Counted from the first letter of the stretch, positions 4,409-34,222 are shown. The stretch is DNA of 43,859 nt from a virus (IMGVR_UViG_2908567220_000006:1-43859); one strand, 5' to 3'. Translations and numbers: made by a program. Notes: generated by a model from the sequence alone, not told the origin.

Positions 4409-4485
4409 TTACCGTTGAGGTAATGATTATGCGTATTTGGTTTGGTGTCAATAGATATGAGTTAAAAAAATTACCCTTTAGGTAA
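4409..4485. promoter_or_regulatory. oL-like operator pair (TTACC-N5-GGTAA at 4409-4423 and 4471-4485) with leftward early promoter
   Basis: Two perfect copies of the 15-bp palindrome between the repressor gene 3' end and the first early-left gene. Confidence 0.55.
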
Positions 4486-4493
4486 TCAAACAG

Positions 4494-4520
4494 GCAATAA
4501 AAAAGCCGCCAGAAGGCGGC
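4494..4520 (-). terminator. intrinsic terminator downstream of repressor gene
   Basis: GCCGCC-AGAA-GGCGGC hairpin followed on the minus strand by a T-run, about 25 bp after the repressor stop. Confidence 0.5.
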
Positions 4521-4542
4521 TTACTTACTGAAAAATATGATT

Positions 4543-5127
4543 TTATTGTTTGTTTTTTTCGTTCTGGTTGATGACAAATTCAATGTAACTTTCGATCTTT
4601 GCTTTCTCGGTTTCGGGTAACAATGCGTAGCGCGAGCGGTCATAGTTGATGGTCGCAGGGTCGTGCGGGTGAATCAGTAATTCATAGCCGTGACGCCCGA
4701 ATGCGGATGCAACATTCTCCAGGGTGGAAATGGAAACGCTGACCTCATTGTTTAACAGGCGGCTGATTGTCACCTGGGAGACGCCAGATGCGCGGTGAAG
4801 TTTTCCCTGTGTTGAAAGGTCGCGGCTTTCGCTCATCCAGCGTTCCAGGTTGTGAGCCGCCAGTTGACCAATGTCGCTTGGTCCGACAGGCTGAAAACCT
4901 TCCTGAGAAAGCGAGCGATCGATATCAAGCCAGTTACGGGGTTTATTGGCGGCAGCTTCGATTTTTCGCGCAACCTGGTCGCCGATAACCTTCTTGCCAA
5001 GAGCCCAGCGGTTTACCAGATTTGCCTGAGTTCCAAGTTTTTCTGCCATCCGCGTCTGAACACCATTGAATTCACGGTCGATCAAGTCGTTGAGATTTTG
5101 CCTGCGGACGTCCTGGATACTTTTCAT
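4543..5127 (-). CDS. CI-like phage repressor with two tandem XRE-type HTH domains
   Basis: 194 aa; two HTH-like segments (GVQTRMAEKLGTQANLVNRW and LHRASGVSQVTISRLLNNE); divergent from a Cro-like gene; no S24 peptidase motif is apparent. Confidence 0.7.
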   Translation of the reverse strand: MKSIQDVRRQNLNDLIDREFNGVQTRMAEKLGTQANLVNRWALGKKVIGDQVARKIEAAANKPRNWLDIDRSLSQEGFQPVGPSDIGQLAAHNLERWMSESRDLSTQGKLHRASGVSQVTISRLLNNEVSVSISTLENVASAFGRHGYELLIHPHDPATINYDRSRYALLPETEKAKIESYIEFVINQNEKNKQ

Positions 5128-5182
5128 TTTCTGGAAAATCGCCTCATATCTGAATCAGAAGATGATTCAATTTAAAGCAATA

Positions 5183-5245
5183 TTACCCAACAGGTAAATG
5201 CACCTCATGGGTAACTATCCTTGATTTTTGTTACCTTATAGGTGA
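5183..5245. promoter_or_regulatory. oR-like operator cluster with divergent pRM-like and pR-like promoters
   Basis: Three palindrome copies in the 154-bp repressor-cro intergenic region: 5183-5197 perfect, 5200-5214 GCACC..GGTAA, 5231-5245 TTACC..GGTGA. Candidate pR: -35 TTGATT 5221-5226, -10 GAATAT 5244-5249. Confidence 0.6.
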
Positions 5246-5281
5246 ATATTTATTATCTGAAATAAATATCAGGCAATAGCT

Positions 5282-5512
5282 ATGAGCGATAACGGACATT
5301 TCGATTTCAAAAAGCACTGGCTTGCACTTACTCCGGATGAGCGTGAAGCCTTCGCACAGGAAGCCGGAACGACGAGTCACTATATCCAGACTCACTTAAC
5401 AGGTAAGCGCAAAATGCCAGGTAAGGTATTGATGGATGGGCTTTTTAAAGCCTGTAAATCAAGACAATGGCTGCGCTCAAAAGCAGAACTGGCATACTTC
5501 TTCTACTCATGA
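5282..5512 (+). CDS. Cro-like / YdaS-type small HTH regulator
   Basis: 76 aa, divergent from the repressor, transcribed from the operator region. Confidence 0.6.
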   Translation: MSDNGHFDFKKHWLALTPDEREAFAQEAGTTSHYIQTHLTGKRKMPGKVLMDGLFKACKSRQWLRSKAELAYFFYS

Positions 5513-5533
5513 TATCCAGCCACAACCCTCTGT

Positions 5534-5557
5534 AGACCGCCATCCGGCGGTCTTTTC
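5534..5557 (+). terminator. intrinsic terminator after cro (tR1-like)
   Basis: Perfect 8-bp stem AGACCGCC-ATCC-GGCGGTCT followed by TTTTC; a palindrome copy (5568-5582) lies immediately downstream. Confidence 0.6.
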
Positions 5558-5663
5558 ATATCTATTCGTACCTCAAAGGTAATAAAAAACCAAATATGGT
5601 TGATCTTTTTTTTTGTGTCAGCACAAAATAACCGTAATCCCAATACTAATAACAGGGCTTACC

Positions 5664-5864
5664 ATGGAAATCATTACACGTATTGATGCCGCAAAGCGCG
5701 GACTTAAACGCTACTACACCGGAAAACCATGTAAGCACGGACATGACAGTGAACGCTGGGTTTACAACGGACACTGTGTTGAGTGCACCATGGAATCAAA
5801 CCGTCGCATCAGGGCAGAGATTAAGCAGATCATGATTAATTCCTCCCCACAACACTCAAGCTGA
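5664..5864 (+). CDS. small putative zinc-binding protein in cII position
   Basis: Start taken at MEIITRIDAAKRG; Cys/His cluster (CKHGH...CVEC). Confidence 0.4.
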   Translation: MEIITRIDAAKRGLKRYYTGKPCKHGHDSERWVYNGHCVECTMESNRRIRAEIKQIMINSSPQHSS

Positions 5865-5879
5865 TAGCGGAGATTAATC

Positions 5880-6695
5880 ATGAGCAGACATGCAACAGAT
5901 TGGGCCTGGGAGACAGATCCAGGTAGCTCATCATTAAAGCTCATACTGCTCTCGATGGCTGACAGAGCCGATGAATATAACCTCTGCTACCCCAGCATAG
6001 AACGCCTCGTTAAAGACACTTGCCTGAATAAAAAAACCGTGCAGGCCGGGCTTATATCGCTCATGAAAATGGGGCTTATTTCAGATACCGGAGATAGAAA
6101 GGGAGCGACAAAAAGAGTGCGGGTTTTCTCTCTTAATATAACCAAAAACGGGAACATTAAAGGCAACCGGGAAGGGGGTAATGAACCCGAAAACGGTAAT
6201 GTTACCGAAAACGGGAATATACCCAAAAACGGGATGTTGAATGATCCCAAAAACGGGATGTTGAATGATCCCAAAAACGGGATCCAGAACCAGTCATATA
6301 ACCAGTCATTTAACCAAGAGAGGGAGAGCAGGACAAAAAGCGGGGATTCTGTGCCTCATGACCCCGGCGCAAACAACGCCGTGATGAATAACTTTGTTCC
6401 TCCTGGTTGGCCAGGGCAATTAGGCAAATTTGTCATGCATGAACAATGGCAACCATCAGATGACTTTCTTCGGAAAAGCTCATTGCAGGGGATCTACCTG
6501 GACAGTCTGCCAACGGCACAGGAACTTGCAGAGTTCAGAATTTACTGGATGGCTGAGGGTAAGGCATACCATCAGGCACAGTGGGAGCAGAAGCTGGCAA
6601 GGAGGCTGCAGATTAGCAGACAGAAGCAATCAACATTACCTGATAACAACGTTCCGCACTGGAACAGCCCTGAAGCATGGGAGGATTTCTTGTGA
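5880..6695 (+). CDS. replication initiator (O-like; N-terminal winged-HTH, C-terminal DnaT-like domain)
   Basis: 271 aa; Asn/Gly-rich repetitive linker encoded by iteron-like DNA repeats; directly upstream of the P-like helicase loader. Confidence 0.7.
   Translation: MSRHATDWAWETDPGSSSLKLILLSMADRADEYNLCYPSIERLVKDTCLNKKTVQAGLISLMKMGLISDTGDRKGATKRVRVFSLNITKNGNIKGNREGGNEPENGNVTENGNIPKNGMLNDPKNGMLNDPKNGIQNQSYNQSFNQERESRTKSGDSVPHDPGANNAVMNNFVPPGWPGQLGKFVMHEQWQPSDDFLRKSSLQGIYLDSLPTAQELAEFRIYWMAEGKAYHQAQWEQKLARRLQISRQKQSTLPDNNVPHWNSPEAWEDFL
6140..6285. repeat. iteron array (putative replication origin) inside initiator gene
   Basis: Six copies of CC(C/G)AAAACGGGAA-like units spaced 18-24 bp, including a perfect tandem 24-bp duplication cccaaaaacgggatgttgaatgat at 6222-6269. 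Confidence 0.55.
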
Positions 6696-7477
6696 ACAAC
6701 GTTTTTACCGCGATACAAAACCGTGACGGAGAAGCCCTTTCTCGCATGTCAGGTTATGAGCATCAGTACACCAACAATGATAACGTGGTGAACATGTCAG
6801 CAGAGAGGCTTGTTGATGCCCTTTTCAAACAGCTGAAACAACTGTTTCCGGCGGCAGTGGTAACCAACCTGAAGACGCCAGAGCAGGAAGTTGCTGCAAA
6901 ACAGCAGTGGATTGCTGCGTTTGCCGAAGGGGGGATCCGAACCCGTGAACAGGTTTCTGCTGGTATGCGCCACGCCCGCGCCAGTGAATCTCCGTTCTGG
7001 CCGTCGCCTGGGCAATTCATCAAGTGGTGTAAAGACAGCAAGATGGTTCTTGGCGTCACCATTGACGATGTGATGGCGGAGTTTAACCGGTACAGCAAGG
7101 AAAAAAGTTTATATCCTGGTGGTCCCGAAAGATTCCCGTGGCGACATCCGGTTATGTACTGGGTCGTATGTGATACCCGCCGTGCAATGTATCAGCGCCA
7201 GCTTAGCGAGATTGAGGTTGAGAAACACGCGCGCAAGCTGCTCGATGATTGGGCGAAAAAGGTGGCTTCCGGACAGCAGATACCCGATCCGGTGATCAGC
7301 ATACAGGCAAAGCCAGAACCCATGAGTACACCTCCGGACACAGGGAGAGACGTTTACCATCCACCAGGGCGAAGTTTCGGGTGCATGCCTAACGCCGCCA
7401 CCCTTGGTGGAATAACACCGGCGCAGTGGCTGATGGAGGAATACAGGCGAGGAAAGGCGGCAGGATTTATCAAGTAA
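6692..7477 (+). CDS. replication protein P-like helicase loader
   Basis: Motif SPFWPSPGQFIKWCKD matches the recalled lambda P motif RPFLPSPGQFVAWCRE. GTG start at 6692 with GGGAGG SD preferred over the ORF-track ATG at 6677. Confidence 0.75.
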   Translation: MNNVFTAIQNRDGEALSRMSGYEHQYTNNDNVVNMSAERLVDALFKQLKQLFPAAVVTNLKTPEQEVAAKQQWIAAFAEGGIRTREQVSAGMRHARASESPFWPSPGQFIKWCKDSKMVLGVTIDDVMAEFNRYSKEKSLYPGGPERFPWRHPVMYWVVCDTRRAMYQRQLSEIEVEKHARKLLDDWAKKVASGQQIPDPVISIQAKPEPMSTPPDTGRDVYHPPGRSFGCMPNAATLGGITPAQWLMEEYRRGKAAGFIK

Positions 7478-7514
7478 TACCAGCGCGATAGCGCATTTTT
7501 TTACGCCTCGACAA

Positions 7515-7591
7515 TTACCTGTTAGGTAATAAAATATTCTAAAATCTATTGATTTCGTGTCTTATGTGGTTTTTAATTACCTTAGAGGTAA
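7515..7591. promoter_or_regulatory. two palindrome copies (7515-7529, 7577-7591) upstream of nin-like operon
   Basis: Perfect TTACC-N5-GGTAA copies; the second overlaps the Shine-Dalgarno of the gene starting at 7595. Confidence 0.5.
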
Positions 7592-7594
7592 ATC

Positions 7595-7939
7595 ATGAGA
7601 AAACAGATACAGGCTCTTGGTCGACTCAAAACAGGCCAGATGAACAAAACAGAATCTGCGTATTGCCAGCACCTTGAGCAGCGTAAACGTGCAGGGGAAG
7701 TCGCCTGGTATCGGTTCGAGGGTATCAAGCTGCGGCTGGCTGACAACACGTTTTATACGCCCGATTTCGCTGTGATGCTCGCCACCGGAGAGATGGAACT
7801 GCACGAAGTGAAAGGTTTCTGGACCGACGACGCCAGGGTGAAAATCAAAGTCGCCGCAGATCAGTATCCGTTCCGAATCATCGGGGTAACGGTTAAACCA
7901 AAGAAAGCAGGTGGTGGCTGGAAAATCGAAGAGTTCTGA
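7595..7939 (+). CDS. DUF1064-like phage protein (inferred)
   Basis: 114 aa; family assignment is from memory of the motif pattern, not a search. Confidence 0.45.
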   Translation: MRKQIQALGRLKTGQMNKTESAYCQHLEQRKRAGEVAWYRFEGIKLRLADNTFYTPDFAVMLATGEMELHEVKGFWTDDARVKIKVAADQYPFRIIGVTVKPKKAGGGWKIEEF

Positions 7940-8000
7940 ATCGACGATCTTTTTAGTTACCAATGTAATCAATAAGTTATGTGGATAAGCGAGGGTAAAG

Positions 8001-8579
8001 ATGGAAAGTAATATTAAAGGGTTAGTTTCCGCCGGGCATGAGATGGCTTCGGAACTGAAAGCAGAATGTGGTGCCGTTGATATGCGCAGTGTGGCAAAGC
8101 TGATCAGCGATTTGGCAACGCAACTGGAAGTGCAACTGGTGCGTGCTAATGTGCTGGCCGAAGACCACCAGAAAGCGATTGAGTCAATTAAGCAGGCTGA
8201 TGCGGCTGTTAAGTTTGCACACGAGAAGTTTTCAGCGCTGGCGGCGGAGAATGCGGGGCTGAAGTCTGGCGCTATGGACGAAATCAAGGTTATCAACCGT
8301 GGAGGGCAGGCATATTGCGTAAAAGATGGAGTGCAAGTTAATCCCATGTATGCAAGAGGGTGGAATGACTATCGCGCAAAGTCTCTGCAATCAGACACCC
8401 CAGCCACCGACTCTTTCCTGTCTGAAGTACGGGCGCAGGGGGTGGATATGGCTCGTAACGCGATGATTGATTTTGTTGATGGTGAAGTTGGGCCAAACAA
8501 GAACGTTCCGGGGCTGATTAGAGGCGCAGAGATATGCGTAAGTATTGCTGAACAGCTTCGCAAAGGAGGCAGCCAGTGA
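8001..8579 (+). CDS. hypothetical phage protein
   Basis: 192-aa ORF in a compact plus-strand operon. Confidence 0.5.
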   Translation: MESNIKGLVSAGHEMASELKAECGAVDMRSVAKLISDLATQLEVQLVRANVLAEDHQKAIESIKQADAAVKFAHEKFSALAAENAGLKSGAMDEIKVINRGGQAYCVKDGVQVNPMYARGWNDYRAKSLQSDTPATDSFLSEVRAQGVDMARNAMIDFVDGEVGPNKNVPGLIRGAEICVSIAEQLRKGGSQ

Positions 8580-9121
8580 GTGTAACGGTTGAAAAGATTG
8601 ATGTGTTGTCATTCGTTATAACCGGTGCAGAGCGACTAGATCCGGTTAGAGTGATGATTGAAAACTACGAACCCGGTAAGGGAAGAATCACCATCACCTG
8701 CTACGGAAAAGCGTGGACTGCGGCTTGGTTTGCTATGGGCGGTGATGATGTGCAGACGTTCATTAAGCGGGTCAGCAACGAGTATCTAATCGGCTATTTC
8801 GACCCACAACTGCGAAGCACTGTCGACGATGACAACGATGCAAATCTGCTTTTCGTGAAGTCAGAAATCATAAAGTTACGAAGAGAGAGAGAAATAGACG
8901 CCGTACTGGCTCGCGAAATGTGGGACGAGGCGGAAAACGCCGATGACGTAAAAGAAAGCTGCTGCTGTTTCGGCGTCGGTAACAAACTACTGAATCTCTT
9001 TGGTGATGATCCGTGGTATGCCGACTGGCCAACGGTACCAAACCCGAAATACCAGTATCTGGAACGCGTACTTAATGCAGTGAGAGACGGTCTTAAGCAA
9101 ATAGAGAAGGTGGAACCATGA
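8576..9121 (+). CDS. hypothetical phage protein
   Basis: 181 aa; start overlaps upstream stop. Confidence 0.5.
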   Translation: MSVTVEKIDVLSFVITGAERLDPVRVMIENYEPGKGRITITCYGKAWTAAWFAMGGDDVQTFIKRVSNEYLIGYFDPQLRSTVDDDNDANLLFVKSEIIKLRREREIDAVLAREMWDEAENADDVKESCCCFGVGNKLLNLFGDDPWYADWPTVPNPKYQYLERVLNAVRDGLKQIEKVEP

Positions 9122-9417
9122 CTGTATGTCTTATTGATAAACGTCGACGTGGGCAACAAATACCATCTGTTGAAATGCCGAATCACACATGGTTTTGCGT
9201 ACTTGATATCGATGGTATGGATGCGTTGGTTGACACTCGTCATTACTGCGATACCGCAACAGCTACTCCGGCGAAAGCAAAGAAAATGGCTGCTCTGATA
9301 GAAAACTGGACTCCACCTGATGGTTGGTGCAATGGGAATGATCGAGATTGGCACGAAAAAATTAAGGGCTATATCTGCGATTTTTTACGTAAATGCAACG
9401 GATTCAGGGTGATGTGA
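9118..9417 (+). CDS. hypothetical phage protein
   Basis: 99 aa; start overlaps upstream stop. Confidence 0.45.
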   Translation: MTVCLIDKRRRGQQIPSVEMPNHTWFCVLDIDGMDALVDTRHYCDTATATPAKAKKMAALIENWTPPDGWCNGNDRDWHEKIKGYICDFLRKCNGFRVM

Positions 9418-9480
9418 CATGAGCGAAATTGACTATCAGGCTTCAATTGCCGCAGGCATTCGCATCAAAGAAGGTGAGTA

Positions 9481-9657
9481 ATGCGTGCGGCATGTATCGG
9501 CTTGTTACCGTACCCGACTCGTTTTTGGGCTTCTGCGCTAATTGCAAAGCCACATGTCCTGATGGCTGACAACATCATCCCGGCACCAAAGCGCCGCCAT
9601 ACCGGTATTGCAGCGGCACGACGAGCAGCAAAGAGACGCAGGAGAGCAAAGCGATGA
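9481..9657 (+). CDS. small basic hypothetical protein (58 aa)
   Basis: Own translation MRAACIGLLPYPTRFW...RRAAKRRRRAKR; ATG overlaps stops on both sides. Confidence 0.3.
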   Translation: MRAACIGLLPYPTRFWASALIAKPHVLMADNIIPAPKRRHTGIAAARRAAKRRRRAKR

Positions 9658-9830
9658 AAAACCGTAAGGCAAAACGACTTTTTTTACAGCGACCTGTGCG
9701 TGTGGTGGAGCTGGTTATTAGCAACCATAAGATAGCGGTACTCCATCCATTTGGTCAGGTGGCTTTTGCCGCAAAGCGTAAGCCTACTGCGTCACAGAAC
9801 AGGCGGAAGAAAGGGTACGCAGTAAGATGA
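9654..9830 (+). CDS. small basic hypothetical protein (58 aa), paralog of next gene
   Basis: Own translation MKNRKAKRLFLQRPVRV...; shares the MKNRKAK N-terminus and start context with the gene at 9827. Confidence 0.35.
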   Translation: MKNRKAKRLFLQRPVRVVELVISNHKIAVLHPFGQVAFAAKRKPTASQNRRKKGYAVR

Positions 9831-10015
9831 AAAACCGTAAAGCAAAGATTCTGTTAGTTCGTAGAAACGCTCCTGGCGTCTGGCAGTGGGTGAGACTCAG
9901 CAACCGACGGATGGGGTTGATGAAATATTACGGGATGATGGATTGTGGTTTTTGCAAAAAGTCCAGCGCGGCGCAAAACCGCTGGAGAAACCATTTGCGC
10001 ACTAAAGGAGAGTGA
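9827..10015 (+). CDS. small basic hypothetical protein (62 aa)
   Basis: ORF-track protein MKNRKAKILLVRRNAPG...; ATGA overlap with the upstream paralog. Confidence 0.4.
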   Translation: MKNRKAKILLVRRNAPGVWQWVRLSNRRMGLMKYYGMMDCGFCKKSSAAQNRWRNHLRTKGE

Positions 10016-10017
10016 TA

Positions 10018-10226
10018 TGGCTATTGCCGCAAGTTACACCATGCATCTCTATTGTGACTGCCGCCAGTGTACGGAAGGTGTATATCCAGTGCCAGACTTC
10101 GGTGAGTATATCGGTACGTCATGGTCTGGTTGTGCAAAAGAGGCCCGTAAAGACGGGTGGCGAATAAGCAAAGACAAAACTCGTGCTTTTGCGCCAGGGC
10201 ATAAAGTTTTAAGGATTAACAAATGA
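10018..10226 (+). CDS. small Cys-rich hypothetical protein
   Basis: Start taken at MAIAASYTMHLYCDCRQC, which has a GGAG SD upstream. Confidence 0.45.
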
Positions 10227-11191
10227 CCACTATTACCAGAGAAAACGCGGAAATTAAATCATTCATCACTGGTTTCCTGAGCGACCCGGCGCACGATAAC
10301 CAATCTACAGACAGCCTGCTTGCCAATGTGTTTCGTATCGCACAGGCATCGCTGGAAGCAGAGCCTATTGGTGAAGTTTCAGAGAAGCGATATGGCCTTG
10401 TTATGGATGGAACGGTAGACCTTGGCGGGAAATCAACTTATCGCATCATTAAGGGAGAAAAAGCGATGAAGTTGTTGCCGTTGGGGACGAAGTTTTATAC
10501 CGCACCGCCAGCGCCGGTAATACAGGCTGATATCGCGCAAGCAATTGAAAACCTAAAGCAAAAGTTAGTGGAATGCAATCGCTATAACTACTGCGCAGAT
10601 GCAGTTAAAGGTGTTGAGGATGCCAGCCGCGTCTTGGCACTCCAATATCAAAATATGTCAACGCCGATAACGCCGGAGGCCATTGAAAACGCAATTGAAT
10701 ACATCCGCAGTATCGCTTTTCACATCGATGAAGACGATTACCACGGCAAGCATATTGCGTATTTCATGCGACAAGCACTGGCCTGGCTGGAAGGGCATTC
10801 ATGCAGCGACGACAGACTGGGTAAAGCCGAGAATCAAACAGTACACGGCAACCAGGCTGCCGAATCCAATCGCGGTAATGAGTGGACCGGCAATCCTGAT
10901 ATTGATAACGCAATCATCATGCTCGACCGCATAGATACGCTGGAAAGTTGCGATGATGACCGTATTGAGGCTGTTAAGGCTGTTTTGCGTAGACTGGCTG
11001 GCAACTCTCCGGTAACTCCGGATGGTTGGGTTATGGTGCCGAAGGAGTTAACCCCGGAAATGATGAGAGCCGTTCAGATTAGAAGTGAGCTTGGAGGGTA
11101 TGCCACTTCCAATCTATCTGGTGCATACAATATGTTTTCTGAGTTCTGGAATGTTGCTGTCTCAGCTGCGCCTAAGGTTGATGATTTATGA
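10223..11191 (+). CDS. hypothetical phage protein (322 aa)
   Basis: Long ORF in operon; no motif assigned. Confidence 0.55.
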   Translation: MTTITRENAEIKSFITGFLSDPAHDNQSTDSLLANVFRIAQASLEAEPIGEVSEKRYGLVMDGTVDLGGKSTYRIIKGEKAMKLLPLGTKFYTAPPAPVIQADIAQAIENLKQKLVECNRYNYCADAVKGVEDASRVLALQYQNMSTPITPEAIENAIEYIRSIAFHIDEDDYHGKHIAYFMRQALAWLEGHSCSDDRLGKAENQTVHGNQAAESNRGNEWTGNPDIDNAIIMLDRIDTLESCDDDRIEAVKAVLRRLAGNSPVTPDGWVMVPKELTPEMMRAVQIRSELGGYATSNLSGAYNMFSEFWNVAVSAAPKVDDL

Positions 11192-11490
11192 ATCTATATC
11201 GCTGCCCATTCTGTGGTTCCACTGTGCTTAACATCGGATACTCATTCAGTATCAGAGGGAAAATGCGCTATGTGTCATGCAAATGTGGTGCCCAAGGACC
11301 AGAAAAACGAACTAAATCTGAAGCGATTTCTTCATGGAATAGTCGAATGAAAGTATGGGTTTATGATCCAGAAACCATATTAAACGCTGAAGAGCGCAGG
11401 AGAACGGAAGTCTATATTCATAACCTTAATGAAGATGGATTTACACCAGTGCTTGTAAAGGCTACTCCGCAGGAGGTTAACCGTGGCTAA
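11188..11490 (+). CDS. Lar-family restriction-alleviation-like protein (zinc ribbon)
   Basis: N-terminal CPFCGS...CKC motif as in Lar-family proteins. Confidence 0.5.
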   Translation: MNLYRCPFCGSTVLNIGYSFSIRGKMRYVSCKCGAQGPEKRTKSEAISSWNSRMKVWVYDPETILNAEERRRTEVYIHNLNEDGFTPVLVKATPQEVNRG

Positions 11491-11764
11491 CCTTCAACTT
11501 GCCGTCAAAGGTGAATACTTCGATGCCATGATTCGAGGAGAGAAAACGGAAGAGTATCGCCTGTGTAATAACTATTGGAATAAGCGAATTATGTTCCGGG
11601 AGTATGACCGCCTGATTATCACAAAGGGATATCCGAAGCGTGACGATTCCAGCCGCAGAATTGACGTTCCGTATGGCGGCTATGAAATCAAGACAATCAC
11701 ACATCCGCACTTCGGCGATAAACCGGTAAAGGTGTACGCGATAAAGGTGAATATTGATGGCTAA
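11483..11764 (+). CDS. ASCH/PUA-like domain protein
   Basis: LAVKGEYFDAMIRGEKTEEYR pattern resembles ASCH-fold proteins. Confidence 0.45.
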   Translation: MANLQLAVKGEYFDAMIRGEKTEEYRLCNNYWNKRIMFREYDRLIITKGYPKRDDSSRRIDVPYGGYEIKTITHPHFGDKPVKVYAIKVNIDG

Positions 11765-12095: not shown

Positions 12096-12144
12096 CATGT
12101 CACGAGTAGATTATGCATGATGAATTTGATGGGTTTTGAATACT

Positions 12145-12170
12145 GCCGCCAACTATGGCGGCTTTATTTT
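12145..12170 (+). terminator. intrinsic terminator upstream of terminase operon
   Basis: GCCGCC-AACTAT-GGCGGC hairpin followed by TTTATTTT. Confidence 0.5.
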
Positions 12171-12181
12171 GCATGGTACTA

Positions 12182-12214
12182 TTACCACAACGGTAACTAT
12201 TACCACGGTGGTTA
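12182..12214. promoter_or_regulatory. palindrome pair immediately upstream of small terminase start
   Basis: 12182-12196 perfect TTACCacaacGGTAA; 12200-12214 TTACCacggtGGTTA overlapping the SD. Confidence 0.5.
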
Positions 12215-12216
12215 TG

Positions 12217-12810
12217 ATGCCTGCTGAACCTAAAACCTATAAACGCAAATCAACGCAATTTAAGCCACTAACAGCAATGCAGGAGGCTTATTGCCAGTCA
12301 TACATCAAAACGCCTGAAAACCAGACTCAGGCAGCGATTAACGCAGGATTCTCCCCAAATACAGCGGCAGTTAAAGCCAGTGTCATGATGCGCGATGAAC
12401 GCATTCAAAAACGGATTGCCGAGTTGATGGAGGAGCGCAACAAACGAATGCGCGTCAGTGCTGATTACGTTCTCATGCGCCTGGTGGAGATCGACCAGAT
12501 GGACGTGATCGACATCCTCAACGACGATGGGAGCCTTAAACCAATCCGTGAGTGGCCGAAAATCTGGCGCACTACGCTTAGTGGCTTTGATCTGTCATCG
12601 ACCATCATGAACATGAACGAGGATTCGATAGAGACAATCCTCAAAAAAATTAAATGGCCTGACAAGGTGAAGAACCTTGAGCTGATTGGTAAGCATGTTG
12701 ATGTCAACGCGTTCAAAGAACGTCTGGATGTTAATGTGAATGTGACAATTGCTGATCGCATAGCAGCAGCCAGGAAGCGACTCAAAGAACGTCAGGATGG
12801 TAATCAGTGA
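12217..12810 (+). CDS. terminase small subunit
   Basis: Start at MMPAEP with GGTGG SD; about 197 aa, directly upstream of and overlapping the large terminase. The ORF-track start at 12136 would read through the operator copies. Confidence 0.7.
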   Translation: MPAEPKTYKRKSTQFKPLTAMQEAYCQSYIKTPENQTQAAINAGFSPNTAAVKASVMMRDERIQKRIAELMEERNKRMRVSADYVLMRLVEIDQMDVIDILNDDGSLKPIREWPKIWRTTLSGFDLSSTIMNMNEDSIETILKKIKWPDKVKNLELIGKHVDVNAFKERLDVNVNVTIADRIAAARKRLKERQDGNQ

Positions 12811-14282: not shown

Positions 14283-14333
14283 TCCTCTGGAGGGGATAAT
14301 GCTGCTGATATCCTCTGGTGAGGATAAAACAAA

Positions 14334-14359: not shown

Positions 14360-14372
14360 ACATGTCACGGTG

Positions 14373-14729: not shown

Positions 14730-14740
14730 AATCTCACCTT

Positions 14741-14927: not shown

Positions 14928-15004
14928 TGGCGTGGCATGCAGGATTCGAACCTGCGACCAACCGCTTAGAAGGCGGTTGCTCTGTCCAGCTGAGCTAATG
15001 CCAC
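14928..15004 (-). tRNA. tRNA-Arg (anticodon UCU)
   Basis: Manual fold of the reverse complement: 7-bp acceptor stem GTGGCAT/ATGCCAC, D-arm GCTCAGCTGGACAGAGC, anticodon stem ACCGC/GCGGT with loop CTTCTAA, T-arm GCAGGTTCGAATCCTGC, discriminator G plus CCA. Acceptor stem differs from my recollection of host argU. Confidence 0.9.
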
Positions 15005-15326: not shown

Positions 15327-15341
15327 TTACCTGAAAGGTAA
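15327..15341. promoter_or_regulatory. palindrome copy upstream of portal/head operon
   Basis: Perfect TTACCtgaaaGGTAA about 90 bp upstream of the first ORF of the head operon. Confidence 0.5.
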
Positions 15342-27395: not shown

Positions 27396-30300
27396 TGCCG
27401 ATATATGAACAGGATCCTAAAGAGTTGCTTGGCGAGGATATTCAGCAAATAGCAGCACCTGATGACAGTAATTTCTATATGGAAACACCTTCTTTGCTTT
27501 CTGCTGTGAACCCATTTACCAGTGATCAACGCGTTCAAAGGTCTAGACAAGCAGCATTTCGTATAGATAACACGCTGGGTAGCTTTATTGCCAGTGCTCC
27601 TTTCAGTCAGTTTGACAGGGTTGAAGGATATAACCCATTTGATAACGATGCAGCAGATATTAAAGGCTATGAAGATTTTGCAGATTCGTTTATCAACTCC
27701 GGTTCGCATGAAGAAACAATGGCAATTAAACATCGAATCGATAAGCAAAGAACAGATAGAGAATATCTATCTGAAATGGGTGGTGCTGGTACTATTTCAA
27801 GCTTAGCAATGGGAATGATAGACCCGGTTAATGTGGCTGCAATGTTCATCCCTGTAGGGGCGGTAGCGCGTGGAGGAAGTATTGCTGAGACGGCAGGGCG
27901 TTTTGCCCTGGCGAATGCTGCTGGTGGGGGAGTATCAGAAGCCGCATTACAGGCCACTCAGGAAGCTCGCTCACCGATGGAGAGCGTATCGAACGTTGTT
28001 GTTGATGCTCTCGTTGGTGGGATCCTTGGTGCTGGTGCACAGCTACTTGCTGGACCTAGCGCGCGCGAGGCAGTGGTTAACTCAGTAGGTAATCATTTGC
28101 GAGGTATGGATTCTCCTCAAAGCATTGGTGCAGCTCAGGTTTTCAATACCACACTCGATCAGGAACAGCTCGCTGGACTTGGACTTGCTAACAAAACGTT
28201 GAGTGTCACTCCTGCTGGCCGCTTGGCGCAATCACCATCTCTTGTCTCCCGTCAGATTAACCAGCAGCTTGCCGAAAATAACTATTTCTTCGCCAAAAAT
28301 GATGAGGGGTTGGCTACGTTTACGGCAGTCGAGACTAAGATTAAGCAATACGACGCCATGCTTTATAAGCAGATGGAAGCTACTCGTGATGCTTACCAGC
28401 AGTACAGCAAATCTGTCAGCGCCCGCGGCGTGAAGAGGATGAACTTTATTGATTTCAATGAAGCTGTTGGCATGGCTATGCGCCGTGGTGATCAGAGTGA
28501 TATTCCTGAGGTTTCACAAGCAGCCGCCAGAATCCGCCCCATTTTTGAGACCACAAAAGCCCGTATGCAGGAATTGGGGATCCTTCCTGAGGATATCGAT
28601 GTCGTGACGGCGAAGAGTTATCTTCCCCGCATTTATAAGTTCGATAAGATACTTTCCGACCGCACTGAATTCAGAGGGCGAATTGCCAACTGGATACAAG
28701 TGATTAGTGCCAAAGGTGCTGACAAAGCAGGTCAGCGAATTGAAAAGATAAATTCATTGCTAAAAACTGCAGAGGAATCAGCACCGCGCGCTGATGCTCT
28801 CGCTAGTGAAATCGCTGAAGCGGAGAAATGGTCTGGTAAAAAAATTCTACTCATGGAAGAACTGGATAAACGAAATAAGCTTATATCTCAGGAGACTGAC
28901 ACACAGGCGCGTCTTACAAGAATAGAAAAAGAGTTGGCCGAGACTTCATCAGAAAAACTTCAGGCAAGAATGATGAAAGAAAGCTCTGACCTTAAAACAC
29001 GCCTTGATGATATAGCGCAGGCAAAGAGTGAGCTTCCTGTCTATCAGCGCCATATGGAGTTGCTGGATAATCCACGGAAATATCGTTCTGAGCTTCGCCG
29101 ACTGCAAAAACGGGCAAATTCAACCACAAGGCTGAATGCAAGCCGCGAGCGAGCACTGAAGCAGATGGAGCCTCTATCCCGAGAGGAAGCAGAGGACGCT
29201 GCTGACGAGATCGTGAATAAAATAATAGGCGCACCTTCCGGGCTTGTACCAGCCGATATTATCCCAGAGAGACTCGTTGGTCGGGCTGGTTTCACTAAAA
29301 GCAGAACGCTGCTTATTCCTGATGAGCGTATAGAAGATTTTCTTGAATCAGATGTTAACTACATCATGGAAAGTTATCTCCGGCAGGTGGCACCAGAAAT
29401 TGAGCTGACTGCGCAGTTTGGCCGTAAAGATATGGGGGAGCAAATCCGTCAGGTTAGTGAGGAATATACCCGGCTAATAAAAGAGGCTAAAACACCTAAA
29501 CGACGTGCAGTTCTTGAGAAGCAACGGGAGGCTGATATTAGGGATATTACGGCTATGCGTGATCGACTGCTTGGTACTTACGGTGCACCTCAAGATCCAC
29601 GCAGTTTCTTTGTTCGTGCCGGGCGAGTTGCTAGGAATATTAACTTCCTCCGTTTGCTTGGTGGAATGACTGTCTCCGCTGCAACTGATCTGATGCGACC
29701 GATGATGCAGCATGGCCTGAGAAAATCTCTCGGACCAATGGTAAGCATGCTTAAAAATATGGACTCAGTGAAAATTGCAACCAGGGATTTGCGAGAAATG
29801 GCAGTTGGGCTTGATTATGTCCTGTCTACGCGTACAAAGGCTATAGCGGATCTTACTGACCCCTATAGCCGGAGAAGCGCCGCTGAGCGAGGTCTGAACT
29901 GGATGACGCAGAAATTCGGTAACTGGACGCTGATGAATCAGTGGAACAGCGCACTTAAATCATGGTCTGGGATGATAGTGCAGTCGAGGATACTTGACGC
30001 GGCTCGCCAAGTTTCTGCTGGTGGCACGCTCTCCAAAAGTGAAATGCGGAAGATGGCACAGGTCGGCATCAATGAAGATGTTCTGCGCCGAATCGGGGAG
30101 CAATTCGGGAAGCACGGAGAGGATATGGACGGGCTGTTAACCGGGCATAGTCATCTGTGGGATGACCGTTTCGCTAGAGAGATTTTCCAGTCTGCAGTGC
30201 TGAAAGATGTAGACTCAGTGATTGTAACGCCTGGCGTAGGTGATACACCGCTGTTTTTTAGTAAAGAAGGCTGGAAGATGATCACGCAGTTCAAAACGTT

Positions 30301-30784
30301 TATCTTCGCACAGCATAACAGGGTGCTGGTATCTGGTATCCAGCAGGGCGATGCTGCATTCTATCTTGGTGCGCTTGGCACGATTGCGCTTGGCTCAATG
30401 GTCTATATGATGAAACAGAAGTTAAGCGGTCGCGATATCGACTACAGCTGGAATAACCTTGTGAAAGAGGGGATCGACCGGGGCGGAATGCTTGGCTGGC
30501 TCTCTGAGCCGCTGAATACCGTTGAGAACATAAGCGGCGGTAGGTTTGGTCTTGGCGCGATGTTTGGTGCGCCTCCGGTATCAAGGTTTCAGAGTCGTAA
30601 TGCTATTGGTGCTTTACTTGGTCCTACCTTTGATCTTGGCGGTGATGCCGCGACGGTTGCAAATGGTGTACTTAACGGAGAATTTGACAGCCAGCAAACC
30701 CACGCTGTCCGTAAAATGCTACCTTTTCAGAATCTGTGGGCGATATCACCATTACTAAATAAAGTTGAAGAGCAGATGAAATAG
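27395..30784 (+). CDS. very large internal virion/ejection protein (T7 gp16 position)
   Basis: 1129 aa with long coiled-coil-like stretches; last core gene before the accessory island. Confidence 0.5.
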   Translation: MPIYEQDPKELLGEDIQQIAAPDDSNFYMETPSLLSAVNPFTSDQRVQRSRQAAFRIDNTLGSFIASAPFSQFDRVEGYNPFDNDAADIKGYEDFADSFINSGSHEETMAIKHRIDKQRTDREYLSEMGGAGTISSLAMGMIDPVNVAAMFIPVGAVARGGSIAETAGRFALANAAGGGVSEAALQATQEARSPMESVSNVVVDALVGGILGAGAQLLAGPSAREAVVNSVGNHLRGMDSPQSIGAAQVFNTTLDQEQLAGLGLANKTLSVTPAGRLAQSPSLVSRQINQQLAENNYFFAKNDEGLATFTAVETKIKQYDAMLYKQMEATRDAYQQYSKSVSARGVKRMNFIDFNEAVGMAMRRGDQSDIPEVSQAAARIRPIFETTKARMQELGILPEDIDVVTAKSYLPRIYKFDKILSDRTEFRGRIANWIQVISAKGADKAGQRIEKINSLLKTAEESAPRADALASEIAEAEKWSGKKILLMEELDKRNKLISQETDTQARLTRIEKELAETSSEKLQARMMKESSDLKTRLDDIAQAKSELPVYQRHMELLDNPRKYRSELRRLQKRANSTTRLNASRERALKQMEPLSREEAEDAADEIVNKIIGAPSGLVPADIIPERLVGRAGFTKSRTLLIPDERIEDFLESDVNYIMESYLRQVAPEIELTAQFGRKDMGEQIRQVSEEYTRLIKEAKTPKRRAVLEKQREADIRDITAMRDRLLGTYGAPQDPRSFFVRAGRVARNINFLRLLGGMTVSAATDLMRPMMQHGLRKSLGPMVSMLKNMDSVKIATRDLREMAVGLDYVLSTRTKAIADLTDPYSRRSAAERGLNWMTQKFGNWTLMNQWNSALKSWSGMIVQSRILDAARQVSAGGTLSKSEMRKMAQVGINEDVLRRIGEQFGKHGEDMDGLLTGHSHLWDDRFAREIFQSAVLKDVDSVIVTPGVGDTPLFFSKEGWKMITQFKTFIFAQHNRVLVSGIQQGDAAFYLGALGTIALGSMVYMMKQKLSGRDIDYSWNNLVKEGIDRGGMLGWLSEPLNTVENISGGRFGLGAMFGAPPVSRFQSRNAIGALLGPTFDLGGDAATVANGVLNGEFDSQQTHAVRKMLPFQNLWAISPLLNKVEEQMK

Positions 30785-30785
30785 G

Positions 30786-31637
30786 ATGAAAAAAATAAAT
30801 TTGTTTTTTGGCATAGTGCTTTCAATAGTCTCTGTAAATCCTACAGCTGCCAGTTCATTGCAATGCAATAAGGATAACTTTGATGCATGCAAAACGTGCG
30901 AACAATTATCAAAGGCTATCGACTTAAAAGAACCTAATCGTGGCGATTACTATAGAGGGGCTTTATGGAATGGGCTTTACGCCTCTTATGTAATTAATTG
31001 CCCTGTGGTTGCAGAGAAGTTACTGAGCCATGGTGCTATACCATCATATGGCGGATATATGGGGTCTATGGGGGCGGTTCTGACAGGAAAATGGCCTCAT
31101 AACAATGAATCAATAAATCTTTCATGGGCAGATTTGCTTATAAAACATGGATTTGATGTTAATAGGCATACGGGGAATTATAAATCAGCTACTGAAGTAT
31201 GGGCTATAGATAAAAAACAGATTGAATATAAGTCAGTTTTTGACAAGTTAATTCAATCCAGCGAAGTAAAACCACTCGATCCTTCAAGAAATTTAGAATG
31301 GTGTGCGTCTGAAGGGTATCGCTCAGTTGTCGTTTATTCCCTTAACTCATGTATAGAAAATGCTATAAAACGTTTGGATGACGGTGTTTCTTCAGCGTCT
31401 GATATTTCATCAGCAGCCGTAAATTCCTGTACTAGCGATGTAGAAAATTTCAATAAGCATTTGGCATGCAAAGCAGCTGTTAAAGAAAACTCTGATAAAG
31501 AGAGAAGCAACGTTTACCAGTTATTAACCAGTGATAGTCAAATGAATAAAAATGTTATTGATATGCTGAAGGAAAGAAATATTGAAACGGTTCTTGAATT
31601 TAGAGCTGAAAATCGATCAGCGAAAACTGCACAGTGA
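30786..31637 (+). CDS. secreted Cys-rich protein with ankyrin-repeat-like segments (moron)
   Basis: N-terminal signal peptide MKKINLFFGIVLSIVSVNPTAA; AT-rich codon usage unlike flanking genes; segments ALWNGLYASYVINCPVVAEKLLSHGA and WADLLIKHGFDVN resemble ankyrin repeats. Confidence 0.55.
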   Translation: MKKINLFFGIVLSIVSVNPTAASSLQCNKDNFDACKTCEQLSKAIDLKEPNRGDYYRGALWNGLYASYVINCPVVAEKLLSHGAIPSYGGYMGSMGAVLTGKWPHNNESINLSWADLLIKHGFDVNRHTGNYKSATEVWAIDKKQIEYKSVFDKLIQSSEVKPLDPSRNLEWCASEGYRSVVVYSLNSCIENAIKRLDDGVSSASDISSAAVNSCTSDVENFNKHLACKAAVKENSDKERSNVYQLLTSDSQMNKNVIDMLKERNIETVLEFRAENRSAKTAQ

Positions 31638-31643
31638 TCAAAC

Positions 31644-31668
31644 AGGCCGCTTTCGCGGCCTTGTTTTT
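31644..31668. terminator. intrinsic terminator shared by convergent genes
   Basis: GGCCGC-TTTC-GCGGCC hairpin followed by TTGTTTTT on the plus strand. Confidence 0.6.
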
Positions 31669-31828
31669 AACGAATGCCACCGCCGCCCGGACGGGAATCC
31701 GCAGAACGCCCACCGCAGCGGGAGCCGTCAGCGGCAGTATCGCTGTCGTGCTGACAACGACCGGCAAAGGCCTGAGTTGAAGCTACCAGAGACAACAAAA
31801 CGAACAGTGCAGCAAATGCTTTTTTCAT
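31667..31828 (-). CDS. small secreted Gly-rich hypothetical protein
   Basis: Start at MKKAFAALFVLLSLVASTQAFA (signal-peptide-like); weak SD. Confidence 0.35.
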   Translation of the reverse strand: MKKAFAALFVLLSLVASTQAFAGRCQHDSDTAADGSRCGGRSADSRPGGGGIR

Positions 31829-31911
31829 TGTGAAAAATTTCCATCTATAAGCCACCTCAATGTGGCGTCAATGAGTGTAGCACTGACTTTTGTTTCGTCC
31901 ATAAAAAACTA

Positions 31912-32424
31912 CTATGCAGGCTTTTTGGATTTGTACGAATAATCCCACGGATAAACATTTCTACTAAGTGGAGCTGTATTCGTTCGTTCATGAAATAATT
32001 TTGTGAAATTCAATACGGAATCCATCCAAACTTTTGCGTTAGCTTTGGTGTGTGCGGGCGGGTCCCAATAAGCTAGTAAGGCTGCATCTCTTATTTCATT
32101 GACTGCATATATGAGATATGCGTTACTGGTTGGTTTTGGCCTGTAATTTCCTTGTTCATCAATCAATCCATATGACCACTCATCCCAACACTGTTCAGTA
32201 CATGAGTATGAATATGATGCATATTCACCAATATTGACATGAACCTTTCTGAGATGGAAGCCTAATACTTCCTCTGGTCTTTCAAAAAGAGTATCTTTTC
32301 CCAGATCAGGATGATGACCATGACGCCAGTGTTGTTTAAAAGCATCTTTTAGCGAAATCAGAAAGTCATCAGTTTTAAACTCACCAGTAGGTATAACCTT
32401 CCCGCTATACTCACTCAAAAACAT
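31912..32424 (-). CDS. hypothetical protein B (170 aa), downstream gene of a two-gene accessory operon
   Basis: Start overlaps the upstream gene by 14 nt; AT-rich; motif region HWRHGHHPDLGKDTLF...GFHLRKVHVNI; no confident family assignment. Confidence 0.55.
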   Translation of the reverse strand: MFLSEYSGKVIPTGEFKTDDFLISLKDAFKQHWRHGHHPDLGKDTLFERPEEVLGFHLRKVHVNIGEYASYSYSCTEQCWDEWSYGLIDEQGNYRPKPTSNAYLIYAVNEIRDAALLAYWDPPAHTKANAKVWMDSVLNFTKLFHERTNTAPLSRNVYPWDYSYKSKKPA

Positions 32425-32737
32425 CGAATTCCTCTTCCTTCATATGCGTTTCTAATGAGTTAAGCTGGCGGAAAGATATCTCTTTTGATTCTGCAGATGA
32501 GAGTTTTTTTATCCGCTTTATATTCTTTGTGATAGGAATAGACATTGTATGCACATCAGCGGATGCTCTTGGCTTTGTGCTGATAAAAATATGGCGCAAT
32601 GCCGCATTTTCACTATTGAACGAGCCAATAGCTGATTTACGTGCTACAACCTTACCAGTAAAAATACGACTCTTGCTACGCTTTGCATGAGTTCCGCTTC
32701 TTACCGGACCTCTCATCACGAATCCAAGTTTTGTCAT
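32411..32737 (-). CDS. hypothetical protein A (108 aa), upstream gene of a two-gene accessory operon
   Basis: GGAG SD 7 nt before the ATG; basic N-terminus; candidate promoter (-35 TTGCAG, -10 TACTAT) abutting the palindrome at 32780-32794. Confidence 0.5.
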   Translation of the reverse strand: MTKLGFVMRGPVRSGTHAKRSKSRIFTGKVVARKSAIGSFNSENAALRHIFISTKPRASADVHTMSIPITKNIKRIKKLSSAESKEISFRQLNSLETHMKEEEFDVFE

Positions 32738-32779
32738 CTTTAATCTCCGGTAAGTTACAGGTATAAAATAAAAACAGGT

Positions 32780-32794
32780 TTACCTTTAAGGTAA
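32780..32794. promoter_or_regulatory. palindrome copy at promoter of two-gene accessory operon
   Basis: Perfect TTACCtttaaGGTAA 43 bp upstream of the 108-aa gene start. Confidence 0.5.
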
Positions 32795-32867
32795 TAGTAC
32801 GCTATTCACCCCCGGTCTGCAATCTGTACAGAATTATTTAAAGGCACGTCCCTGTGCCGCCGACCCG

Positions 32868-33560
32868 TCAGAAGAACCCTGCCTTGTCGTTGATGTACTC
32901 CGCGTGGGTCTGGATATCACGCAGGCATTTGCTCACACCGACGATGTAGCAGAACATGGTGGTCAGTTCCGCCGCCGCGCCCGATACATCGTGCCCGTCT
33001 TCCTGTAACTGGTTCAGCAGATTCATCAGCAGTGAGTTCTCCGTCAGGCCGAGAACACCAGACGGCGAGTGAATCAGGCTACGGTAGCCGGGCTTCAGCG
33101 GGGCGCTGTAGGTTTTGTTCTCTATCTTCATCGCCTGCATTACTGCTGACGCCGTGGCGTTGGCTACCTGGTCGGCAACCATCTTTATGCGTTCTTCCTG
33201 CGGGAGCGAGTTTTTAATGTAACTTCCGGTGCGGCGGATCTGAGGAAGAACCTCACCTGTAACCCATTCAAGAAATCTGAATGCTCTCGTTCCCTCAGTC
33301 ATTGCCTCTTTGCAACGCAGAATAAGGATGTAGAGACCTGATTCTGAAACGATGGATAGTTCTTGTATTCCACCAGGGGTCTGTATTGAATACAGCCCCT
33401 TTTTGTTCCAGCCTTTTTTATCAAGTTTTCTCGCTTGTGTAACATCAATATTCAAAGCATTGCACACATCTTTGGTGACAAACCAAGGTTCTCCGTCAAT
33501 CATGAACATACGGATCTGGCAGGATGACTCAAAGGAAAAGATGGAAGGTTTGGTATTCAT
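32868..33560 (-). CDS. antirepressor (Bro-N domain with C-terminal Ant/KilA-C-like domain)
   Basis: Start at MNTKPSIFSFESSCQIRMFMIDGEPWFVTKDVC (Bro-N signature) with AAAGGTGA SD. Confidence 0.7.
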   Translation of the reverse strand: MNTKPSIFSFESSCQIRMFMIDGEPWFVTKDVCNALNIDVTQARKLDKKGWNKKGLYSIQTPGGIQELSIVSESGLYILILRCKEAMTEGTRAFRFLEWVTGEVLPQIRRTGSYIKNSLPQEERIKMVADQVANATASAVMQAMKIENKTYSAPLKPGYRSLIHSPSGVLGLTENSLLMNLLNQLQEDGHDVSGAAAELTTMFCYIVGVSKCLRDIQTHAEYINDKAGFF

Positions 33561-33827
33561 GGCGATCACCTTTGTAGTTAGGTTAATCACCACCGCTGAG
33601 ACCAATCAGATGGTGGTGAACTGTGCAGAGTTGGTCTTACCGGCTACAAAGGAACCCGGCGCACCTTTCGGTGCCCCCACACAGCCCACCATAGAATAGG
33701 TGCGCTTTACACATAAAAAAACCGCTTATGCGGCATATGTGCCTCTGTAGTAATCCGGGAGACCAATCCCGGCACTGGATTTTGCCAGTGCCCGATTACT
33801 ATGGCACAAGAGGAGTGCGATGTAAAT

Positions 33828-33842
33828 TTACCGCAAAGGTAA
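33828..33842. promoter_or_regulatory. palindrome copy upstream of Bro-N antirepressor
   Basis: Perfect TTACCgcaaaGGTAA. Confidence 0.45.
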
Positions 33843-33873
33843 ATATAAGCACTCCATTTGGTAATTGCAAACC

Positions 33874-34131
33874 TTATCTGGTTTGTTTTCGTAATTGTTC
33901 GGCACAATAGTCGAGATGTGTTTGCAGATCCTGCATAGACATCTGTGAGCTGGTGACGTAGTTAATCAGTGCAGTCAGTTCGGCAAGTGGGCCATCGACA
34001 TTAAATCCATCCTTATCGAGATCCCGGAGTAATTTCATCAAGTGCGATCCCTCCACCAGTGACCTGACGCCTCCCGGCGTGTGAATCCTTTCGGTAAATC
34101 CGTCTTCCAGTGGATAGTGATACTGCTGCAT
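33874..34131 (-). CDS. small antirepressor-domain protein, paralog of the Ant C-terminal domain; putative SOS-inducible antirepressor
   Basis: Start at MQQYHYPL with GGAG SD; SHLMKLLRDLDKDGFNVDGPLAELTALINYV...DLQTHLDY aligns by eye with the Bro-N antirepressor C-terminus; a LexA box overlaps its promoter. Confidence 0.55.
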   Translation of the reverse strand: MQQYHYPLEDGFTERIHTPGGVRSLVEGSHLMKLLRDLDKDGFNVDGPLAELTALINYVTSSQMSMQDLQTHLDYCAEQLRKQTR

Positions 34132-34152
34132 CTTATCTTCTCCATGCAATAA

Positions 34153-34168
34153 CTGTATATTTATACAG
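34153..34168. promoter_or_regulatory. LexA (SOS) box
   Basis: CTGTATATTTATACAG: perfect CTGT-N8-ACAG with AT-only spacer, one base from CTGTATATATATACAG; 22 bp upstream of the small antirepressor-domain gene. Confidence 0.7.
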
Positions 34169-34207
34169 TATCAAATAATTTGTTTGCTATCCAGCACGTT
34201 TTGCCAA

Positions 34208-34222
34208 TCACCTGAAAGGTAA
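34208..34222. promoter_or_regulatory. near-perfect palindrome copy (TCACC-N5-GGTAA) in divergent region before tailspike
   Basis: One mismatch; lies between the LexA box and the tailspike promoter region. Confidence 0.4.

Follow-up and report, generated by a model that had tools for sequence, protein, structure and literature searches.

What reads a short palindrome that recurs, almost unchanged, at control regions scattered over a whole phage genome? The question arose from a viral sequence of 43,859 nucleotides (IMGVR_UViG_2908567220_000006; the window, by which we mean the whole of this stretch), in which an original prediction, made from the sequence alone, had noticed one palindrome at intergenic sites between positions 4409 and 34222. 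The window was identified as a phiV10/ε15-like podophage of the genus Uetakevirus, and not as the lambdoid-type phage that had been supposed. Over the shared parts, it is 96–98% identical to phiV10, PAS61, TL-2011b, and ZX5, and approximately 77% identical to ε15. Motif counts, synteny, and the homologies of the regulators indicate that the palindromes are almost certainly the genome-wide operators of the master repressor of the phage, Rep.

The motif had been described as a 15-bp palindrome, ATTACC-N5-GGTAAT, which as written spans 17 bp and matches the window at only two positions (4471 and 7515). The 15-mer was nevertheless real: the invariant unit is the core TTACC-N5-GGTAA, with ten fixed bases, and not the 17-mer, and the outer A/T flank of the core was seen in approximately 65% of sites. 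A scan with one mismatch allowed and a shuffled control, which had been proposed as a check, found 10 exact copies of the core in the window against 0.02 expected from dinucleotide-preserving shuffles, and 15 copies with at most one mismatch against 0.87 expected; the earlier chance estimate of 0.04 was about right. Among 100 such shuffles, the largest number of perfect copies was one, and none reached 10. The nine copies listed as perfect (4409, 4471, 5183, 7515, 7577, 12182, 15327, 32780, and 33828) were all exact, and the five listed as degenerate carry one mismatch (5231, 5568, 12200, and 34208) or two (5200). Three copies were absent from the list: two within the tailspike open reading frame (ORF), at 35817 (perfect) and 35099 (one mismatch), and an intergenic one with two mismatches at 37270.

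Intergenic positions were counted on a gene map curated from annotated relatives; a map of greedily chosen longest ORFs was dropped, as it called wrong-strand ORFs (e.g., 7577-8347 on the minus strand). Intergenic DNA makes up 6.9% of the window and contains nine of the 10 perfect copies and 13 of the 15 copies with at most one mismatch (binomial P ≈ 3e-10), so that no abundance of equally good copies was seen within coding sequence. The claim that all copies are intergenic held for those listed (for 12182 and 12200, given a terS start at 12217) but not for 35099 and 35817, which are coding. In total, approximately 15 sites were recognized, all at the boundaries of units and none within operons.

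The DNA of the perfect match at 35817 recurs at the homologous tailspike position in IME11 (perfect) and TH49 (one mismatch), which are virulent, Rep-less, and unrelated phages. Because the match is under coding constraint from a conserved peptide and the same DNA is present in phages without the repressor, it is a chance match brought in with the tailspike module, and not an operator. The common spacer (GTACT) of 35817 and 37270 was considered as a scar of duplication or recombination, which was rejected, as the flanks are unrelated and coding constraint explains 35817.

The motif was conserved across the genus. Nine genomes, from phages of E. coli, Salmonella, Enterobacter, and Klebsiella, carry 8–11 perfect copies each at syntenic positions, and the control regions with sites include those of the left (PL) and right (PR) promoters, the nin-like genes, terS, the portal gene, the tailspike gene, and the lysis genes. 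SPC32H has 10 perfect copies at the same positions, and ε15 has 11 perfect and four one-mismatch copies. In alignments of syntenic intergenic regions, the operators and the adjacent −35/−10 blocks form conserved islands in otherwise diverged DNA. The consensus over 65 distinct sites was symmetric, reading A-TTACC-(A/T-rich N5)-GGTAA-T, with A or T as the central base in 62 of the 65. A Pseudomonas phage used as the control (PseuP_224) has no perfect copy and one match with a single mismatch, which lies inside its integrase gene; its repressor homologue has a related N-terminal domain but a different helix, ANYISRC where the genus has NLVNRW.

This dispersed-operator design was already known, being annotated for ε15, with the switch characterized in SPC32H. 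The GenBank record of ε15 (AY150271.2), reportedly described by Kropinski et al. in 2007, contains seven "protein_bind, repressor, lysogeny" features, each reading ATTACC-N5-GGTAAT. They are located ahead of terS, ahead of gp3/portal, in the ant-tailspike region, at PL (three sites), and ahead of the nin-like genes (one site). As the same motif is already annotated there at the same syntenic positions, beside a homologous repressor (gp38), the observation in the window is a rediscovery, and the novelty proposed for enterobacterial phages had to be given up. Full-text literature searches on the motif, and on stoperators of enterobacterial phages, yielded no relevant result. The ε15 record annotates only the seven sites; it leaves out the triple in the right operator region (OR), the second site of the nin-like unit, and the site of the lysis unit. 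In its left operator region (OL), ε15 has a third site, 76 bp from the second. Compared with ε15, the window adds sites at a two-gene accessory operon (32780) and at a unit encoding an isrK-like RNA, a C4 antisense RNA, and a Bro-N::Ant fusion protein (33828), while its lysis-unit site is degenerate.

The predicted reader of the sites, Rep, aligns over residues 1–190 with chain A of PDB 5D50 (E value of 4.3e-42). Overall, it is only 42% identical to SPC32H Rep, and the branch to which the window belongs is that of E. coli phiV10. A Pfam search matched only helix-turn-helix (HTH) families: the C-terminal half, corresponding to the domain for tetramerisation and Ant binding, matched HTH_3, and the N-terminal half, which is the DNA-binding domain, gave a weak HTH match. 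No Peptidase_S24 domain was found. The NLVNRW block of the N-terminal domain is invariant across the genus although Rep identity drops to 42%. Rep homologues were present in 37 phage records, all of Uetakevirus type except one Pseudomonas phage that matched in the N-terminal domain only. In a secondary source, SPC32H Rep is described as a tetramer on palindromic DNA, with DNA-binding dimers formed across dimers, and Ant as itself tetrameric and breaking the Rep tetramer. The Rep of ZX5 is 99.5% identical to that of the window, and its over-expression abolished free phage and lowered holin and endolysin mRNA by 99.97–99.99% (ZX5 paper); the same paper mentions neither LexA nor the small Ant.

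The likeness to SPC32H includes a full-length Rep homologue, a closely related Ant, a LexA box at the ant promoter, and the same operator positions. The Rep-Ant-LexA antirepression switch of SPC32H (PDB 5D50/5D4Z) was reportedly described by Kim and Ryu in 2013 and Kim et al. in 2016, and induction is said, in the former study, to be controlled by LexA acting on ant and not by cleavage of Rep. The ant gene of SPC32H is the homologue of ε15 gp19, and the near-consensus LexA box CTGTATATTTATACAG was conserved in eight of the eight genomes aligned. The gene originally taken for the antirepressor encodes a Bro-N protein that does have an Ant-like domain, but the canonical LexA-controlled Ant is the gp19-like product of 33874-34131. 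Residues 162–243 of the Bro-N::Ant protein are 42% identical to the small SPC32H-type Ant (E value of 7e-16) and belong to the same PHROG. This additional Ant-domain protein, under predicted control by Rep, isrK, and C4, distinguishes the window from SPC32H. Judged from sequence, the window otherwise displays all the testable features of an ε15/SPC32H Rep operator regulon.

We estimate a probability of approximately 0.85 that the palindromes are the operators of an immunity repressor Rep of the ε15/SPC32H type, through which every unit would be silenced in parallel in the lysogen. The genome would be split into short units, each closed by a rho-independent terminator, with the next opening with a promoter-like element and one to three operators; the units would be PL, PR/PRM, replication, nin-like, terminase, portal/tRNA, accessory, isrK-C4-BroN::Ant, tailspike, and lysis (degenerate). 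In the lysogen, Rep would occupy all operators and silence the units by promoter occlusion, and the pairs of sites 62 bp apart (OL1/OL2 and 7515/7577) would each be held, with looping of the DNA between them, by one Rep tetramer with two DNA-binding dimers. Upon induction, Rep would remain uncleaved; DNA damage would strip LexA from the box at 34153-34168, Ant would be made, and its dismantling of the Rep tetramers would free all operators together. The Rep-controlled Bro-N::Ant paralogue may afterwards reinforce or lock the switch. The features concerned are listed in Table 1.

Table 1. Predicted operators and associated features of the window
Feature	Position	Strand	Remarks
Operator OL1, perfect	4409-4423		Overlaps −10/+1 of leftward PL-like promoter
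PL-like promoter	−35 TTGACA 4451-4446; −10 AATCAT 4428-4423	Leftward	
Operator OL2, perfect, full 17-mer	4471-4485		62 bp from OL1, upstream of PL −35
rep terminator	4503-4522		Adjoins OL2
Rep, immunity repressor, 194 aa	4543-5127	−	Full-length homologue of SPC32H Rep
OR-region operator a, perfect	5183-5197		rep-proximal side
OR-region operator b, two mismatches	5200-5214		17 bp from a; position conserved in genus
OR-region operator c, one mismatch	5231-5245		In spacer of rightward PR-like promoter, after conserved TTGATTTTT block
Cro-like regulator, 76 aa	5282-5512	+	phrog_35 "transcriptional repressor"
Operator, one mismatch	5568-5582		15 bp past cro-gene terminator (5534-5553), ahead of replication unit
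Operator, perfect, full 17-mer	7515-7529		Fills spacer between −35 TCGACA (7508) and conserved −10 TAAAAT (7530-7535)
Operator, perfect	7577-7591		62 bp downstream of 7515; contains Shine–Dalgarno sequence (GAGGT) of first nin-like gene (ATG 7595)
Operator, perfect	12182-12196		20 bp after terminator 12145-12162, ahead of terS
Operator, one mismatch	12200-12214		18 bp from 12182; overlaps terS Shine–Dalgarno sequence (GGTGG); terS ATG 12217
Operator, perfect	15327-15341		Between leftward tRNA-Arg unit and rightward gp3/portal unit
Accessory operon	32411-32737 and 31912-32424	−	108-aa protein of unknown function and weakly YafO-toxin-like 170-aa protein
Operator, perfect	32780-32794		Upstream of leftward two-gene accessory operon
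Bro-N::Ant fusion	32868-33605	−	C-terminal 80 aa Ant-like; second antirepressor candidate
C4 antisense RNA	33609-33696	−	Rfam; above gathering score
isrK-like RNA	33715-33791	−	Rfam; above gathering score
Operator, perfect	33828-33842		At +1 of leftward promoter (−35 TTGCAA 33870, −10 TATATT 33847-33842)
Ant, antirepressor, 85 aa	33874-34131	−	87% identical to SPC32H Ant; gp19-like
LexA box, near-consensus	34153-34168		CTGTATATTTATACAG; ant promoter, 22 bp upstream of ant start codon
Operator, one mismatch	34208-34222		Divergent ant/tailspike control region; ε15 homologue annotated as repressor site
Not an operator, perfect match	35817-35831		Inside tailspike ORF; encodes conserved peptide F-Y-R-T-G-N
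Degenerate operator, two symmetric mismatches (TTACT…AGTAA)	37270-37284		Intergenic, upstream of lysis cassette

As had been predicted, operators stand ahead of units across the genome (early-left, cro, nin-like, terminase, portal, accessory, antirepressor-like, and tailspike), and the replication unit has one as well. Several of them overlap either a Shine–Dalgarno (SD) sequence (7577 and 12200) or the −10/+1 of a promoter-like element (4409 and 33828). At the left end, the OL1 operator, the −10, and the −35 block GTCAATAG were conserved in seven genomes. A distance of 31 bp separates the second and third OR sites (5200 and 5231). The operator at 7515 directly follows the terminator of the replication operon, which is annotated in phiV10. 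The centre-to-centre spacing of the OL pair and of the nin-like pair was 62 bp in 17 of 18 cases from the nine genomes (63 bp in one), while the position of the promoter within the pair differs between the two. The spacing corresponds to approximately six helical turns, which points to helical phasing dictated by how the Rep tetramer is built.

For the sites at 12182 and 12200 to be intergenic, terS must start at 12217. The same start is annotated in ε15, in Tyrion, and in the RefSeq record of TL-2011b, and the terminator at 12145-12162 supports it. In the original phiV10 record, terS begins at an upstream TTG (window 12136-12217; L003 41-715) and engulfs two operators and the terminator. That start is probably a mis-annotation, and the downstream ATG fits the pattern of conservation.

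Next to the portal site, a tRNA-Arg gene (anticodon TCT) is located at 14928-15004 on the minus strand. The −10 of a leftward TTGACA promoter (−35 at 15363-15358, conserved) falls inside the operator at 15327; this promoter would drive the tRNA-Arg gene, which may therefore be repressed by Rep. The accessory operon has the same arrangement in TL-2011b, with an operator copy at the same place; its predicted repression in the lysogen would be unusual. The isrK-like and C4 RNAs (Rfam scores of 74.7 and 78.6 bits) are situated at 33609-33791, between the operator at 33828 and the Bro-N::Ant gene, and the promoter at 33828 would drive isrK, then the C4 RNA, and then Bro-N::Ant. The two Ant-domain proteins, one LexA-controlled and one predicted to be controlled by Rep and C4, could provide positive feedback after induction. 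At the lysis unit, relatives have a perfect or one-mismatch site, and the two changes in the window keep the palindrome; control of the lysis genes by Rep may be weaker here.

Several points weigh against silencing by Rep through promoter occlusion at every unit. The promoters were called from consensus matches, which shuffled sequence yields at least as often, and no convincing rightward σ70 promoter was found that overlaps the terS, portal, or tailspike operators. The sites at 7577 and 12200 lie on SD sequences downstream of any promoter, where occlusion alone would be insufficient. The lysis unit of this phage has only a degenerate operator, and binding of Rep at the sites of the window, including those of the late units, is predicted from homology and motif. 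Some of these observations would fit a roadblock, in which Rep at some or all of the distal sites halts RNA polymerase that has read through the preceding terminator, as does gp71 of mycobacteriophage L5: good rightward promoters are missing at the three late sites, 7577 and 12200 are well downstream of promoter-like elements, and sites stand 12–20 bp after terminators. We consider the roadblock unlikely, since the sites are perfectly symmetric and have no polarity, those at 4409, 5231, 7515, and 33828 coincide with −35/−10/+1 elements, and the sites are few (approximately 15), confined to unit boundaries, and absent from the inside of operons; it would also be largely redundant, with a terminator already ahead of each site. 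It is possible, though we would not expect it, that the sites serve mainly the Cro-like protein, or both regulators, in shutting down or timing the early and middle units during lytic growth, and not in the maintenance of lysogeny. The gene for this protein is conserved beside the OR sites, its product matches a phage family of transcriptional repressors, and CI and Cro have common operators in lambdoid switches. However, the depositors of the ε15 sequence assigned the sites to the repressor, the invariant helix of the Rep N-terminal domain co-occurs with the motif, over-expression of Rep by itself silences the lysis genes, and the Cro-like protein has no recognizable Pfam HTH. Sharing of the operators by the Cro-like protein would be compatible with their being Rep operators.

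Two further explanations dispense with a binding protein. One takes the palindromes for hairpins of RNA or DNA that serve as terminators, as processing sites, or as stems that sequester an SD sequence: each site can fold into a 5–7-bp stem, and pairing of one terS site with the other can hide the SD sequence (−11.3 kcal/mol). This was rejected as very improbable: the individual stems are weak (−2.3 to −5.5 kcal/mol), lack a T-tract, and are in several cases no better than shuffles; the arms are invariant in sequence over 83 sites instead of covarying, with the one-mismatch variants uncompensated; and the sites occur in transcribed and untranscribed positions alike. The other is that the palindromes arose by chance, or as a side effect of the AT-rich composition of intergenic DNA or of promoter and SD sequences. 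Intergenic DNA is more AT-rich (41% vs. 49% GC), and several sites have a GGTAA half that coincides with SD-like or −10-like sequence, GGTAAT resembling both. Given the shuffles, the intergenic enrichment, the retention of both half-sites with an exact 5-bp gap in nine genomes, and the lack of a perfect copy in PseuP_224, its probability is negligible, and it was rejected.

A second box (CCATATATGGTT-like and partly palindromic) was observed near 5590, 7563, 15385, 34251, and 37317 and is conserved across the genus. In each of five units (replication, nin-like, portal, tailspike, and lysis), the box stands 15–45 bp downstream of an operator, and in three cases a −10-like TAATAA, TAATAG, or TATGAT follows 7 nt further. 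The box was not enriched genome-wide at up to three mismatches (38 matches vs. 34 expected). It could be an element of activator-dependent middle or late promoters.

Among known systems, the design is functionally closest, by analogy and without homology, to that of C1 of phage P1, an enterobacterial precedent in which operators are dispersed over the genome and include Op51 of immI (c4-icd-ant), as reportedly described by Łobocka et al. in 2004. In both, a single repressor would act at many separate promoters genome-wide (the pattern was observed in the window, where binding is predicted), and the P1 immI likewise has a repressor-controlled promoter followed by a C4 antisense RNA and an antirepressor gene. 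The P1 operator is an asymmetric 17-mer, whereas that of the window is symmetric, and Rep is of the HTH_3/XRE type and unrelated to C1. The late genes of P1 are controlled through the activator Lpa and not by direct operators at the virion genes. The stoperators of L5, reportedly described by Brown et al. in 1997, had been the analogy originally drawn, and they resemble the sites of the window in that the site of one immunity repressor is repeated over both the early and the late region, for the most part in short gaps between genes. The analogy proved loose. L5 stoperators are asymmetric 13-mers that are oriented with transcription, lie downstream of promoters, and stop elongation. In contrast, the symmetric 65-site consensus makes polarity impossible, so that no L5-type asymmetry was found, and the sites of the window are fewer and closely follow terminators, where they overlap or adjoin promoter-like elements, with Rep being tetrameric. 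As in the CI-Cro switches of lambda and P22, divergent rep and cro-like genes surround three palindromic operators, and a second cluster is found at PL. Unlike in those phages, Rep is without an S24 autocleavage domain, induction would proceed through Ant and LexA, and operators are also present at the replication, nin-like, packaging, virion, and lysis units, with no evident N/Q antitermination cascade.

The attP core ATTGAGTGGGAATGATT, the sequence of which was taken from the ZX5 paper, is intact at 39297-39313. Because of this, the window has the appearance of a circularly permuted genome that is not integrated. An IS3-family insertion sequence (IS) element (orfA 41808-42218 and orfB 40945-41850) and an IS1 transposase gene (42946-43449) were observed within 40945-43672, between the integrase gene and the ninI-like phosphatase gene; these copies explain much of the excess of approximately 4.5 kb over the 39-kb relatives. 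All the relatives examined have a conserved one-mismatch operator ATTACCYTAAAGGTATA approximately 55 bp upstream of the integrase gene (L001, 26882; L003, 26870; L004, 238; L005, 26960; L007, 28568). None was found at the corresponding place in the window (approximately 39500-39619), the integrase of which is also different and shorter (396 aa). The immunity region (window 4380-5620, comprising rep, the cro-like gene, OL, and OR) was matched at an identity of at least 95% in 540 of 5,426 complete E. coli genomes, or approximately 10%, in nearly every case as a single chromosomal copy.

No new biological question is opened by these results, as the design is on record for ε15 and the switch has been characterized in SPC32H. 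One combination of mechanisms would go further: Rep tetramers that bridge the 62-bp pairs, and possibly distant sites, might act together with roadblocks at SD sequences and after terminators, as a symmetric-site Gram-negative counterpart of stoperator-type whole-genome silencing. This is a tentative proposal, and we would sooner expect it to fail than to hold. The full operator set aids annotation, as in the start of terS and in deciding which "antirepressor" is SOS-controlled, and it would be useful for engineering reporter or therapeutic phages of the phiV10 or ε15 type. Cross-immunity among members of the genus can be predicted from it as well. Across four host genera, and despite Rep identity as low as 42%, operator and recognition helix appear to be frozen, presumably because a change of specificity would need ten or more sites to change simultaneously. 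If this is true, these phages would form one immunity group, unlike the diversifying lambdoid and cluster-A phages.

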